NCBI GenBank assembly: GCA_045601465.1
Contig: JAZRZU010000071.1
Coordinates: 1-52,311, forward strand
DNA length: 52,311 nucleotides
Source: Acutalibacteraceae bacterium
GTDB taxonomy: Bacteria; Bacillota; Clostridia; Oscillospirales; Acutalibacteraceae
Direction of reading: 5' to 3'
A program made the position numbers and the translations under genes. Of this stretch, positions 10,634-52,311 are shown one piece after another (positions within the stretch are counted from its first letter, which is position 1; each line of letters begins with the position of its first letter). The notes under the pieces are model-generated. The model made no database searches. It was given only the letters and a program-made list of their open reading frames with translations, and was not told the DNA's origin.

Positions 10634-11293
10634 TTATCCAATCAATTGCTCACGCAGCTGTTGTAAAATGACTCGTTCTCGCCTGGATACTTGTACCTGT
10701 GTCATGCCCAATGCCTCGGCGGTTGCCTGCTGTGTCTGGCGACGAAAATAGCGATACACAATAAGCGAACGGTCGTGAGGCGGTAGATTTTCCAGTAGCT
10801 GGCGCAAAGCCAGACGGTCGGTGATCAAGGATTCCGGCGATTCCACCGGAATATCAAACTCATCCCCCTCATCCTCCTCGCCGCTACGAGTAAGGGACAG
10901 CGGCGGCAAGGATGCACCCAAAGCCTCTGCCGCCTGTTCACGCTCGATACCCAACTTTTCGGCGAGTTCGATCACACTCGGTTCACGACCTTCTTGCAGA
11001 CAAAACGCGTCTCGCTGTTGCGAAACGCGCATCGCTAACTCCTTCAACGAACGACTGACCTTGACCGTTCCGCCGTCACGGAACAGCCGCCGTATTTCTC
11101 CCAAAATGACCGGCACCGCATAGGTGGAAAATTTCAGTCCTCGGCTTTCGTCAAAACCGTCCACCGCTTTAACCAACCCCATGCTTCCCGCCTGTACCAA
11201 ATCATCGTACTCGATCCCTCGCCCGATAAACCGACGGGCGCAAGCATGGACTAACCCCATGTTCCCGCAGATCTTTTCTTCTCGCTCTTTCAC
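10634..11293 (-). CDS. sigF: Sporulation sigma factor SigF
   Basis: Sigma-70 regions 2-4, and third gene of the spoIIAA-spoIIAB-sigF operon. ATGA overlap with spoIIAB. Confidence 0.85.
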   Translation of the reverse strand: MKEREEKICGNMGLVHACARRFIGRGIEYDDLVQAGSMGLVKAVDGFDESRGLKFSTYAVPVILGEIRRLFRDGGTVKVSRSLKELAMRVSQQRDAFCLQEGREPSVIELAEKLGIEREQAAEALGASLPPLSLTRSGEEDEGDEFDIPVESPESLITDRLALRQLLENLPPHDRSLIVYRYFRRQTQQATAEALGMTQVQVSRRERVILQQLREQLIG

Positions 11294-11742
11294 AACGGCT
11301 TCGCCATCCGTTCTTTCACCATTATGTATTTTTCCATCGTCACAACAGTACCCCGTCCCGGTTTGGAGGATACCCGCAATTTATCGGTAAAGCTTTCCAT
11401 CACCGAAAAGCCCAGTCCCGACCGATCATCCCCACCGGTGGTAAACAACGGCTCCATCGCCTGCTCAACGTCGGGGATACCGCACCCTTTATCTCGAATC
11501 TTTATCACGGTGCGCCCATCGGCATACAATTTCATCTGAATGGTAATTGTGCCGATCGTGTCGCCGTAGGCGTGCACGATACAGTTGGTCACCGCTTCGG
11601 ATACCGCCGTGCGCAGATCCGCCAGCTCATCCACCGCCGGATCTAATTGCGACAAAAAAGATGCCACCGCCGATCGTGCAAACCCCTCGTTTGCCGACCG
11701 ACTGGGAAAGGTAATTTTCATCTCGTTCATTGGTTTTCTCAT
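11290..11742 (-). CDS. spoIIAB: Anti-sigma F factor (serine kinase) SpoIIAB
   Basis: HATPase-type N and G boxes (EAVTNCIVHAY, DKGCGI, GLGFSV). Overlaps the spoIIAA stop. Confidence 0.9.
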   Translation of the reverse strand: MRKPMNEMKITFPSRSANEGFARSAVASFLSQLDPAVDELADLRTAVSEAVTNCIVHAYGDTIGTITIQMKLYADGRTVIKIRDKGCGIPDVEQAMEPLFTTGGDDRSGLGFSVMESFTDKLRVSSKPGRGTVVTMEKYIMVKERMAKPL

Positions 11743-16553: not shown

Positions 16554-16590
16554 AAAAATCTGTGAGAGAATTGTCTCTCACAGATTTTTT
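16554..16590. terminator. Bidirectional terminator between trxB and spoIIR
   Basis: AAAAAATCTGTGAGAGA / TCTCTCACAGATTTTTT. Confidence 0.75.
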
Positions 16591-17191
16591 ATTTGACCGA
16601 AAACCATTCAACCAATTCCTGTACCCATTCCAACACCTTAAATCGTATCACAAAACGTGAACCATCCTCCACAACCGTACACGCCTCACCGGGCAGTACG
16701 TCTCGTAAGGAATTTTTATCCGTTGCCGCCGACACACACAGCGGTGGGTACATCACGCACCACCAATTTTTCCCCTTCGCCTCACCGAGCGAAAGACGGA
16801 CAGCATGATACCGCCCCGCCGGGAACGTACCGTTCTCATATATGCGGGTCGTAAAATACATTTCGGTCAATTCCGCTTTGACAGGATAGGAAAATCCCGC
16901 CTTTTGAACGCACTCCTGCGCCACCGCTGTCAAACGGGGAAGCGCCTCTTGTAACCGCTGCTCCGCCTCGGCACGGGAGGTAACACCATCCAACAACCCG
17001 GCGCCGGCGGCTGTCACGGCATCCCGTACCTGCATCTTAACCGCCTGGTCTGCCTCACTGTCCGAATTTGCCAAAATATGCATTCTCACCACCGATTCCC
17101 GTACGGTCGTGCAAGTACCGACAAATCCGCACACCCATAAGACCAGCCCTACCAATATGGCACCCGCCGCTGCTTTTACCCATTTCATCAT
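16589..17191 (-). CDS. spoIIR: Stage II sporulation protein R
   Basis: Contains VRMHILANSDSEADQ...NWWCVMYPPLC, which is characteristic of SpoIIR. ATG at 17191 follows AAAGGGAGGAC. Confidence 0.85.
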   Translation of the reverse strand: MMKWVKAAAGAILVGLVLWVCGFVGTCTTVRESVVRMHILANSDSEADQAVKMQVRDAVTAAGAGLLDGVTSRAEAEQRLQEALPRLTAVAQECVQKAGFSYPVKAELTEMYFTTRIYENGTFPAGRYHAVRLSLGEAKGKNWWCVMYPPLCVSAATDKNSLRDVLPGEACTVVEDGSRFVIRFKVLEWVQELVEWFSVK

Positions 17192-17247
17192 AAAAATCCG
17201 TCCTCCCTTTATGTTCTTGACATAAAGCATGGACGGATTTCTTTCAC

Positions 17248-49588: not shown

Positions 49589-49599
49589 TAAACCCACAT

Positions 49600-49639
49600 A
49601 AAAAAAGGTTCGGTACCAACAGGTACCGAACCTTTTTTT
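49600..49639. terminator. Bidirectional terminator shared by pnp and the sigK 3' segment
   Basis: AAAAAAAGGTTCGGTACC / GGTACCGAACCTTTTTTT. Confidence 0.8.
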
Positions 49640-49652
49640 ATGTGCTTTTGTA

Positions 49653-50030
49653 TTACTTTGTCCGAAACCGCACATCCCCCTGTTCAAATCGCTTCCGCAG
49701 TTTTTCCAGCGCCTTTTTTTCAATGCGGGATACATAAGAACGGGAAATGTCCAGTTTTTTCGCTACTTCACGCTGTGTCATCGGTTCCCCCACCAATCCA
49801 TATCGCCATCCTATGATCTCCTTTTCTCGGTCGCTTAACGTCTCGTTCATATAGCGATATAACTTGGTAGCGTTTATTTTTAAATCCAGATCCTCTAAAA
49901 TAGTATCCTCCGCCGCAATCACATCCATCAACGTTAAGGAATTGCCCTCTTTGTCCGTTTCAATCGGCTCCATAATTGAAATATCCTGCGCTGTTTTGCG
50001 ATTAGCTCGAAAATACATCAGAATTTCATT
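49653..50030 (-). pseudogene. sigK: 3' segment of sigK (sigma-K regions 3-4 only), separated from its 5' half by inserted DNA
   Basis: NEILMYFRANRKT..PIETDKEGNSLTLMDV...DREKEII..RYGL...TQREVAKKLDISRSYVSRIEKKALEKL aligns to the SigK C-terminal half. Upstream of about 50030 the frame is antisense to an XRE gene and has no region 2. Confidence 0.8.
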
Positions 50031-50087
50031 TGCTATGGAGACCTCAATGACACATCTTTTGTGGTCTTTGATAAGAACGGAAAACCA

Positions 50088-50513
50088 ATGCTCCACTTTG
50101 TTTACCCATTGCGAACTATCAGCGACGATGCCACTGTCGGTGAGAAGATTGCTTTTTACCGCAAGAAAAGGAACTTGTTTGGCAACGACCTTGCAAACCT
50201 TATTGGCATTGACAGGGTAACAATGATACGATATGAGAACGACCAACTTGATTGCCCTTATGATGTGATTATTCGCATAGCGGAGGCGCTCAATGTGGAC
50301 AGGCATTTGTTAATGGACGAATACCTGCAGTTCATTGACTATCCCTACTCTGTATTCATTAAGCAACGACGAAAGGAGTTGCATTTGCGACAATGCGACC
50401 TCGGTGAGCAGGTCGGAGTTACAAGGCGACAGGTGGAAAAGTGGGAGCACGGAGTCTGTATGTTGCCGAAAGATAGGTATCATAAACTCAAAGAGATTCA
50501 CTTTATCCCATAA
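50088..50513 (+). CDS. Tandem-HTH XRE family regulator
   Basis: Two XRE HTH modules are present (GEKIAFYRKKRNLFGNDLANLIGIDRVTMIRYE and IKQRRKELHLRQCDLGEQVGVTRRQVEKWE). The start is uncertain (GTG 50061 or ATG 50088). Confidence 0.75.
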   Translation: MLHFVYPLRTISDDATVGEKIAFYRKKRNLFGNDLANLIGIDRVTMIRYENDQLDCPYDVIIRIAEALNVDRHLLMDEYLQFIDYPYSVFIKQRRKELHLRQCDLGEQVGVTRRQVEKWEHGVCMLPKDRYHKLKEIHFIP

Positions 50514-50515
50514 GA

Positions 50516-50550
50516 AAAATCGGTGGTGCAACAAAGCACCACCGATTTTC
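50516..50550. terminator. Bidirectional terminator
   Basis: AAAAATCGGTGGTGC / GCACCACCGATTTTC. Confidence 0.7.
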
Positions 50551-50722
50551 ATTGTTTTTCCTTAAGTAATTCATCAACAATCTTGATTTTGTTACCCGAA
50601 CTGGTTTCGAGTTTAGAGAGGTATTCGCGCATAATCATTATCCTGTAAATAGCCATGTCTTCTATCAACTTTGACCTATCTTCTTCGCTGTTCGGGTAAT
50701 GTATGACCGCTTTAAAAGCCAT
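50549..50722 (-). CDS. Hypothetical 57 aa protein
   Basis: MAFKAVIHYPNSEEDRSKLIEDMAIYRIMIMREYLSKLETSSGNKIKIVDELLKEKQ. ATG at 50722 follows CAGGGGGCTAATTT. It is below the ORF-track cutoff. Confidence 0.45.
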   Translation of the reverse strand: MAFKAVIHYPNSEEDRSKLIEDMAIYRIMIMREYLSKLETSSGNKIKIVDELLKEKQ

Positions 50723-51047
50723 AAATTAGCCCCCTGTGAAAAGATATTCAGTTGTAGAAAGTCTTATGCGTATATCTTTAATCTATTGAGGGTAAGTCGT
50801 TCTCCGTTTGAAGATTTCATACAAAAGTGTCCAAAGTATACGAGATTTTTTTCGTTTTGTCAATAGCAGACGGGGGTTATTTCGAACTTTTTTCAAAATT
50901 CATTGTTTGTATACTTCAATTATGCTATAATACAAACAGACAGATAAACTTGAATTTGACGCCACCATATCAAAATACGGGGTGGCTTGACAGTCCATTG
51001 ACGGCAAACTTTGCTTGCCATAGAATGATAGACGGAGGTGCGCCGAC

Positions 51048-52049
51048 ATGACTGATAAAAAAACATTCGGCTCGTTCATAAAAGCCAAACGAACTGAGAA
51101 AAATTACTCACAAAAAGATTTGGCAGAAATGCTATTTGTAACCGAGGGTGCGGTGAGCAAATGGGAGCGAGGTGTGTCATATCCCGACATTACGTTGATT
51201 TCCGATATTTGCCGTGTCCTTGACATAAGCGAACACGAATTGATTACCGCATCAACAGACACAGATACACGAAGGATGAAGCACGAAGCACAGAAATTCC
51301 GTGTGATTCGCGGCACGTGGTTTTGGATTCCTACTATCTCCTATGCCGTTGCGCTGCTGACTTGCTTTATTTGTAATCTTGCAGTCAACCACACTTTGTC
51401 TTGGTTCTTCATCGTGTTAACTGCGCTTCTTTGTGCTTACTCATTTATCCCGACCTTTACATCGTTTTTTAAGTCGAAGAAACTGCTTGTTTTTACTGTA
51501 ACAAGTTTCTCTTCAATTTGTTTGCTCTTATATACCTGTGCGGTGTATACAGACGGGCTATATTGGTTTCCCGTGGCCTGCATCGGCACGCTGATGGGGT
51601 ACATATTGGTTTTCGGAACAATTTTGCTATCCAGAACAAAGCTGTCCCGCTTTAAATTTGTTATAGCTTTTACGGCAGTTTTGGCGCTGACAATACTGCT
51701 TCTTTTGTGTATTTATAGTTGGCAGCCCTTTATGCTTGGGTCGGCAATTCTCATAACGATTTATGCGTACATTCCCGTGATTTTGTGCACCGTGATTTGT
51801 ATGTTTTCTTTTGACGGGTTCTTTAAGGCAGGCATTTGCACGGTTGTAGCGTCTTGCGAGTATTACTGTATGGGGCATATCACAAATGCGCTGTTCGGAC
51901 TGAATGAAAAACATTATGAAGTGGATTTTCACAACTGGGCGCAGTGCGTTACAGGAAATGTCCACTTGATTGTTATAACAGCAATGCTGTTTATCAGTGC
52001 TGTTTTGTTTGTAATCGGTTTTTTGAGAGTTCGCAAGTTAAGAAATTGA
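51048..52049 (+). CDS. XRE HTH domain fused to a multi-pass membrane domain
   Basis: N-terminal YSQKDLAEMLFVTEGAVSKWERG HTH followed by about 7 hydrophobic helices. The RBS is GACGGAGG, and TTGACG-17-TAGAAT lies upstream. Confidence 0.8.
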   Translation: MTDKKTFGSFIKAKRTEKNYSQKDLAEMLFVTEGAVSKWERGVSYPDITLISDICRVLDISEHELITASTDTDTRRMKHEAQKFRVIRGTWFWIPTISYAVALLTCFICNLAVNHTLSWFFIVLTALLCAYSFIPTFTSFFKSKKLLVFTVTSFSSICLLLYTCAVYTDGLYWFPVACIGTLMGYILVFGTILLSRTKLSRFKFVIAFTAVLALTILLLLCIYSWQPFMLGSAILITIYAYIPVILCTVICMFSFDGFFKAGICTVVASCEYYCMGHITNALFGLNEKHYEVDFHNWAQCVTGNVHLIVITAMLFISAVLFVIGFLRVRKLRN

Positions 52050-52060
52050 ATGGATATAGA

Positions 52061-52097
52061 ACAGCCGCTGACTATATGGTCAGCGGCTGTTATTTTC
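52061..52097 (+). terminator. Terminator
   Basis: ACAGCCGCTGAC / GTCAGCGGCTGT followed by TATTTTC. Confidence 0.65.
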
Positions 52098-52311
52098 GTC
52101 ATGTTGGAGCGAAATGTGGTTATTTTCAAAAGTAGTATGCTAGTAGTACAAATGGCATAAACCCGTTGCAAAGGGTGGTAAGCAAAAGCATAGCTTGGTA
52201 TGCCGCTGCTGGGTCAAATCTTGCCGTGGCAGATAAAAAGAATTTTGTACATAAAATGCCCTCGCTTTCGTGAGCGTATGATAGCACAAAAGAAGTCGGA
52301 TCGTAGCCATG

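Follow-up and report, generated by a model that had tools for sequence, protein, structure and literature searches.

In Bacillus subtilis, Clostridioides difficile and other spore formers, sigK is interrupted by a skin-type element, and a recombinase encoded on the element excises it in the mother cell. The principle of a sigK-intervening element has been known since 1989. Skin elements measure 48 kb in B. subtilis, with SpoIVCA and Skr as the factors, and 14.6 kb in C. difficile, with CD1231 and CD1234; in the mother cell, a recombinase and a directionality factor cut the element out in circular form, after which sigma-K is available (PMC5025042, PMC6957869). A survey of 180 reference genomes described 15 skin elements of 2.6-48 kb, in which a SpoIVCA-like gene always lies at the edge, the orientation relative to sigK varies and the recombinase is the only gene in common (Galperin et al., 2022). 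A related case is gin, which interrupts gerE in Bacillus cereus; it is not a prophage, depends on GirC and GirX, and occurs as near-identical copies across hosts, which imply recent horizontal spread (PMC5595907).

Here, we compare a locus from an Acutalibacteraceae bacterium with these systems. The window, by which we mean the whole stretch of DNA analysed, is 52.3 kb long and is an entire contig that ends inside an insert. In our preferred reading, which we hold with good confidence, sigK is split by a large-serine-recombinase element at the AA dinucleotide of the CIE-NEILM motif, and one end of that element lies on the contig together with the sigK 3' half. Skin-type elements as such are already well known; the present one belongs to a small, non-phage and very widespread family in a lineage outside the Galperin survey.

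The sigK 3' part occupies positions 49653-50030 of the minus strand and comprises 125 codons (NEILMYFRAN...RFRTK) and a stop, covering sigma regions 3-4. It lies within a 217-aa minus-strand open reading frame (ORF; 49653-50306), residues 90-209 of which align with positions 110-230 of the 235-position NCBIfam SigK profile NF004471 (142.8 bits, E = 1e-41), while TIGR02846 is matched at positions 108-226 of 227 with 134 bits. The SigE profile gives 106 bits, about 37 below SigK, and SigF and SigG score far lower still; the SigK-specific profiles are thus the best match of the 3' part, which aligns with their C-terminal portion only. That it stays below the whole-protein cut-off of NF004471 (252) is due only to the missing half of SigK. 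Pfam finds Sigma70_r4 alone in the ORF, and region 2 is without a match. The NEILM stretch begins at residue 93, its Asn codon being window 50030-50028, and the SigK match ends directly ahead of the NEILM codons. An earlier reading of this DNA, made from its letters alone (hereafter the sequence-only reading), had proposed that sigK is split and that only its 3' half is present; the profile positions and the missing region 2 bear this out.

The 3' half itself is free of stops and frameshifts. It shares 83% identity with SigK residues 107-231 of a genus relative whose gene is intact (L132), and dN between the two genes is about 0.09, with dS saturated. The sigK and pnp genes converge, their stops lying at 49653-49655 and 49588, respectively, and a terminator scan places a bidirectional hairpin terminator between their 3' ends (49597-49642; 20-pair stem with flanking T and A runs). 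When the SigK N-terminal halves of B. subtilis and of the genus relative were used in tblastn searches, no sigK 5' half was found in the 52.3-kb window, and neither a serine nor a tyrosine recombinase was found there by tblastn; the sole other sigma gene in the window is sigF-like (10634-11293). Because the window is the whole contig, the 5' half and recombinase of the source genome itself are out of view, and their absence is expected.

Upstream of the NEILM codons, the open frame extends over residues 1-89 (MPVHIE...VIEVSIA; 50031-50306, minus strand). This extension has no family match and is most likely not a gene: the frame stays open 5' of NEILM only because it is antisense to a genuine double-HTH XRE gene. 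The sequence-only reading had also placed a change in base composition at the break, but this argument is weak. The GC fraction of pnp is 0.529, against 0.431 for the sigK 3' half, 0.398 for 50031-50960 and 0.427 for 50961-52311. The fall thus sets in near 49,600, where pnp and sigK meet, and just a small extra step lies at 50,030.

The break has a defined sequence. The window junction, ...CCATAGCA|AATGAAATT, is common to about 20 other split loci, and intact relatives read ...GTGGAA|AATGAAATT at the site. Written as codons, intact genes run ...GTG GAA | AAT GAA ATT, split 3' halves ...CC ATA GCA | AAT GAA ATT, and split 5' junctions ...GAA AAT | GCT ATC TAT ACC TGA. In the source genome, the 5' junction would be expected to read sigK ...GAAAAT followed by GCTATCTATACCTGA, and an empty site ...TGTGT(N)GAAAATGAAATTCTGATG. 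The rejoined sigK junction would contain ...GAAAATGAAATT..., and the circle junction (attP) ...CCATAGCAAATGCTATCTAT.... In the related loci, an AAATG core with a central AA is common to attB, attL, attR and the deduced attP, and in the last of these (...CATAGCA-AA-TGCTATC...) the AA is the centre of an inverted repeat. The 30-nt attP arms of L081 and L082 match each other as reverse complements at 22-23 of 30 positions, compared with just 7-9 of 30 for the attB arms. Symmetric attP arms combined with asymmetric attB arms are typical of large-serine-recombinase sites.

In the window, the element-side arm is an attP-type half-site, ...GATGTGTCATTGAGGTCTCCATAGCA (50031-50060, minus strand), which is identical to the attR arm of L081 at 29 of 30 positions, as counted by reading of the printed junctions. 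This match puts the deduced crossover dinucleotide, the AA at the centre of the shared AAATG core, at window 50030-50029 on the minus strand, where it forms the first two bases of the NEILM Asn codon. The break that the sequence-only reading had located around CIENEILM is therefore confirmed and narrowed to these two bases; the short repeat that it expected at both junctions is AAATG in the family members, the window having one junction only. The skin of B. subtilis presumably breaks sigK near the CIE-NEILM motif too.

Excision at the AA carried out in silico yields unbroken ...RC(V/I)ENEILM... ORFs in L081, L082, L080 and L020, and the rejoined SigK proteins of L081 and L082 score 281.5 and 277.6 bits, respectively, on NF004471 (cut-off 252). 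Inversion in place of excision was considered and ruled out, as the core is directly oriented at both junctions in L081 and L082. We also considered a target duplication as the source of the RCVIE residues that the element arm spells in the sigK frame. The element arm over this stretch and the host attB of L081 have AGATGTGT in common; the codons of other hosts differ there, and the resemblance is therefore a coincidence.

Next to the break lies the end module of the element, which is conserved (50031-50960). Over window 50005-50960, nucleotide identity to L047 and L081-L090 is 88-97%, each of these copies lying beside the sigK 3' half of a different host, and the similarity ceases at about 50958-50961 in six loci. 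Its first gene encodes an XRE/CI-like double-HTH regulator on the plus strand (50088-50513), of 141 aa from an ATG at 50088 or 150 aa from a GTG at 50061; gene callers report the 141-aa product in L084, L087, L088 and L090. The regulator matches Pfam HTH_19 (E = 7e-15) and HTH_3 as well as PHROG families of transcriptional regulators and repressors, so that the sequence-only reading was right to describe the frame upstream of sigK as running antisense through a plus-strand XRE gene. The regulator could plausibly correspond to SknR, the repressor of skin.

A hairpin terminator (50516-50549; terminator scan, 14-pair stem) separates the XRE gene from a converging gene for a 57-aa protein (50549-50722, minus strand), the hallmark of the element family. 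This protein has no match in Pfam, NCBIfam or PHROG. Its exact sequence occurs in 998 assembly-collection blocks, and among the matches listed its gene adjoins a split sigK in all ten of ten places, the flanking genes of the hosts differing widely. Two promoters are suggested by the sequence. The first lies 5' of the 57-aa gene and is sigma-70-like (TTGACA-17-TATACT; 50835-50863, minus strand), matching the consensus at 11 of 12 positions in a promoter scan, which is a consensus match only. The second is a putative outward promoter read from the sequence (TTGTTT-17-TGcTATAAT; 50903-50931, plus strand) and conserved in L081-L090. It would face the string of genes that leads from cargo to recombinase in related elements, and the downstream genes in L081, L082 and L088 all share its direction.

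The sigK gene of L047 is only 64% identical to that of the window. Judged by these sequence comparisons, the end module is a horizontally mobile unit that lands in sigK repeatedly. A blastn search with window 50036-52311 gave no match in 50,697 phage records, and plasmid records likewise gave none, so that neither a prophage nor a plasmid origin finds support in the visible stretch; the part of this copy beyond the contig may differ. Genes for type IV secretion, a coupling protein or a relaxase are absent from the visible 2.3 kb of the insert.

How such an element is built as a whole can be seen in relatives of the window's kind, which we call type B. In L081 and L082, both sigK halves are present, 5.8 and 4.3 kb apart, so that the whole element is spanned; L088 has the sigK 5' half and about 5.5 kb of element before its contig stops ahead of the sigK 3' half. 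Read in sigK orientation, the gene order drawn from these three loci begins with the sigK 5' half, an antisense serine recombinase and an ORF of 116-130 aa, and continues with a tyrosine-recombinase-like gene (293 aa) and cargo that varies; the 57-aa gene comes next, then the XRE gene, which is on the opposite strand, and last the sigK 3' half. In all three, the recombinase at the 5' junction has 617-724 aa with Resolvase, Recombinase and Zn_ribbon_recom domains; against PHROG, the type-B serine recombinase matches integrase phrog_95 (E = 2e-99). The tyrosine-recombinase-like gene is found at 7558-8439 in L081, 8783-9664 in L082, 74-955 in L086 and 7640-8521 in L088. Virion genes are absent from the complete members, in which the PHROG matches are integrases and regulators only, and a length of 4.3-5.8 kb leaves no room for a virion module. 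With a shared module, a recombinase at the 5' junction and a sigK restored in silico, the view of the sequence-only reading that this is a skin-type element is well founded.

The recombinase ORFs (4658-6628 in L081, 5966-8140 in L082 and 5144-6997 in L088) overrun the junction by about 34-140 codons. As the frame goes on through the sigK 5' half in antisense, the C-terminal tail of the enzyme is set by the host and by the integration state, and the read-through leaves the sigK 5' half uncalled by gene callers in some of these three contigs. Candidates for a directionality factor are the 57-aa protein and the small ORFs that adjoin the recombinase gene; none of them has a family match. Beyond the boundary of the end module, the cargo differs in every family member. 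Two contigs carry the end module with cargo of a quite different kind: in L083 (1-9671) it is accompanied by ParA, ParB and a 2621-aa methylase-helicase, and in L084 (1-9667) it is followed by the type IV secretion and coupling genes PrgI, TrbL, Maff2 and TraG/VirD4-like. Their gene content suggests conjugative-element-sized insertions in sigK.

The family and the known skin elements are similar in several respects. Both the family and the skins of B. subtilis and C. difficile interrupt sigK and have a large serine recombinase gene at the edge; they also share a short att core with inverted-repeat arms and a precise excision that restores the frame, features known for the present family from sequence alone. 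Furthermore, B. subtilis skin carries a CI-like repressor, SknR (PMC5025042, PMC6957869, bioRxiv 10.1101/2022.02.25.481979). Nevertheless, there are clear differences. Complete family members are just 4.3-5.8 kb long and are devoid of phage structural genes. Their recombinase gene is placed at the 5' junction of sigK and antisense to it, whereas CD1231 of C. difficile immediately precedes the 3' half. They have a tyrosine-recombinase-like gene, unlike skin, and nothing homologous to Skr or CD1234 could be recognised in them. The gin element resembles the family in being non-viral, in using a serine recombinase and in splitting the gene of a late mother-cell regulator, but its target is gerE, it is 28.6 kb long and it has three serine recombinases.

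On these grounds, the following course of events can be proposed. A large serine recombinase would have inserted a mobile element into sigK, at the AA with which the NEILM Asn codon starts. By analogy with the three loci described above, the rest of the element should extend rightward beyond the contig and hold variable cargo, followed by a tyrosine-recombinase-like gene, then a small ORF and last the serine recombinase gene, which probably adjoins the sigK 5' half and is encoded on the strand opposite to it; it is by this analogy that we infer the presence of the other sigK half and of a recombinase in the source genome. As long as the element is integrated, the cell would be unable to make sigma-K. 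When the cell sporulates, recombination between the two junctions would take place in the terminal mother cell, carried out by the recombinase and probably a directionality factor encoded on the element; the element would be released in circular form, and the two parts of sigK would come together in frame. The forespore would retain the element in its genome, and the element would thus be inherited. Excision as a developmental event of the mother cell is proposed here from the B. subtilis and C. difficile systems.

The principal alternative is that the locus is a dead remnant, in which a sigK 3' fragment is left beside a 0.93-kb element stub, and either an intact sigK lies elsewhere or sporulation has been lost. 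Much of what speaks for it concerns the gene that follows the end module. This gene, xreTM (51048-52049, plus strand; Pfam HTH_3), encodes a 333-aa protein with an XRE-HTH and a multi-pass membrane domain and is either cargo or adjoining DNA. Promoter and terminator scans give it a promoter-like site (50998-51026) and a terminator (52060-52091) of its own. Copies of the xreTM module (about 50945-52218) with 82-92% nucleotide identity lie in L091, L092, L064 and L079, where ordinary chromosomal genes surround them and they are never tied to the end module. In a metagenome scan, none of 39 homologous loci was linked to sigK, a recombinase or the end module, which means that xreTM is not element-specific and that the insert in the window could be rearranged or truncated. 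Therefore, of the approximately 2.3 kb that the sequence-only reading took to be visible element, 50031 to about 50960 is demonstrably element, and the xreTM part occurs elsewhere. Furthermore, the contig holds neither a sigK 5' half nor a recombinase.

However, the contig simply stops, and an unusual gene past the boundary is to be expected where the cargo varies in every related element. The cargo of complete elements runs in the same direction as xreTM; since cargo also differs from member to member, we read xreTM as cargo. The 3' half is intact, the element arm equals that of a complete element at all but one of its positions, and a second sigK copy was seen in none of the related loci. 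The sporulation genes on the contig are intact as well: they include a spoIIAB and sigF-like pair (10634-11742) and spoIIR (16589-17230), with 181 bits for spoIIAB (cut-off 135), 153.5 bits for spoIIR (cut-off 151.9) and a score below the cut-off for the sigF-like gene. From these genes, the host looks like a spore-former. We therefore consider a dead remnant unlikely.

Some further observations concern xreTM. Together with its promoter and terminator, it behaves as a discrete module in unrelated chromosomal contexts; the L091 copy spans 165-1435. The 14-nt sequence AAACTTGAATTTGA (50946-50959) is common to the left boundary of xreTM and the end of the conserved element module, and this boundary may be a recombination joint. 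A conserved RNA leader 5' of xreTM was sought in Rfam, which returned nothing relevant, and the block holds the promoter-like site instead. No relatives of xreTM were found in IMG/VR. Identical copies of the xreTM protein, of the 217-aa ORF product, of PNPase and of the 141-aa XRE regulator were looked up as well, and none is recorded elsewhere. Window 52222-52287 is 79% identical to L109 1123-1188 over 66 nt, which is weak evidence; the L109 stretch lies 5' of the xreTM homologue and its counterpart in the window lies 3' of xreTM, which hints at a permuted or cassette-like arrangement around the gene.

An assembly or population artefact, that is, a mis-join or an element confined to a sub-population in which most cells have an intact sigK, is less probable still and would surprise us. 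The contig does end in the element, as do the related contigs L047 and L085-L090, a pattern typical of variable or multi-copy metagenome DNA; yet independent assemblies, made from a variety of hosts and samples, have the junction identical to the base, and it sits at a recombinase-type site, unlike chimeric joins. Finally, that the chimeric 217-aa ORF is a gene for a regulatory sigma fragment with regions 3-4 only can be dismissed for practical purposes, for although it is open for 89 codons 5' of the junction and equivalent ORFs of 208-221 aa are called in six related loci, those 89 residues match nothing and are antisense to a well-supported HTH gene, the related ORFs are copies of one 90-97% identical module and hence not independent evidence of conservation, and, according to the sequence-only reading, a ribosome-binding site is lacking.

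The frequency of such splits was determined among the 80 closest species-representative loci, drawn from Acutalibacteraceae and Oscillospiraceae metagenome-assembled genomes. The sigK gene is intact in 56 of these and split at the AA of NEILM in 22; in the other two (L028 and L066) it is split elsewhere. The family thus shares with the set of Galperin et al. (2022) the same definition and the size range, and differs from it in its uncultured gut hosts and in being far more frequent, all 22 splits falling at one dinucleotide.

The majority of the split loci carry what we call a type-A element, in which the recombinase lies beside the sigK 3' half on the sigK strand. Types A and B have in common the crossover AA, the inner arm CATAGCA/TGCTATG, a homologous end with the XRE and small genes, and a serine recombinase at the end opposite the XRE gene. 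In contrast to type B, however, type A is inserted in the opposite orientation, and its recombinase adjoins the 3' half. Type-A loci include L003, L020, L034, L044, L063, L065, L080, L130 and L131; the window stands with L081-L090 and with L008, L043 and L047, which also have its orientation. The recombinases of the two types are only 34-37% identical; given this and their different outer arms, we rejected a single recombinase lineage flipped at the central dinucleotide. These data suggest that one dinucleotide of sigK is a heavily used landing site for two recombinase lineages in opposite orientations.

A bolder extension, which we put forward only tentatively and think somewhat doubtful, is that the end module and recombinase constitute a spreading family of broad host range with the sigK NEILM codon as attachment site, ranging from mini-elements of 4-6 kb to insertions of conjugative-element size. 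The copy in the window would then be transferable, excision would serve transfer as well as sigK repair, and the family would compete with the recombinase lineage of opposite orientation.

For annotation, the contig's 'sigma-70 region 4' ORF is to be understood as the back half of sigK, not as a pseudogene or a small sigma factor, and the source organism should not be scored as sigK-less or as a non-sporulator. Uncultured gut Acutalibacteraceae and Oscillospiraceae join the lineages with skin-type elements, with a possible bearing on the control of sporulation timing in gut anaerobes. The loci also offer natural attB/attP pairs for serine-integrase engineering.

Genus-level relatives have PNPase proteins 96-97% identical to that of the window, with about 80-84% identity at the DNA level. 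Of these relatives, L132 represents the empty site: its sigK is intact, encodes 231 aa and converges on pnp. In L130 and L131, the same sigK codon is occupied by a type-A element. In the last two, a 207-aa extra gene with no family match lies between pnp and the sigK 3' end (7779-8402 in L130 and 4899-5522 in L131), where the window has the bidirectional terminator only. In the two loci split elsewhere, sigK is broken farther 5', at about residue 63-68 in B. subtilis numbering (L028, 4615-4818 and 9860-10012; L066, 9875-10012), so insertion into sigK is not confined to a single site in this clade.
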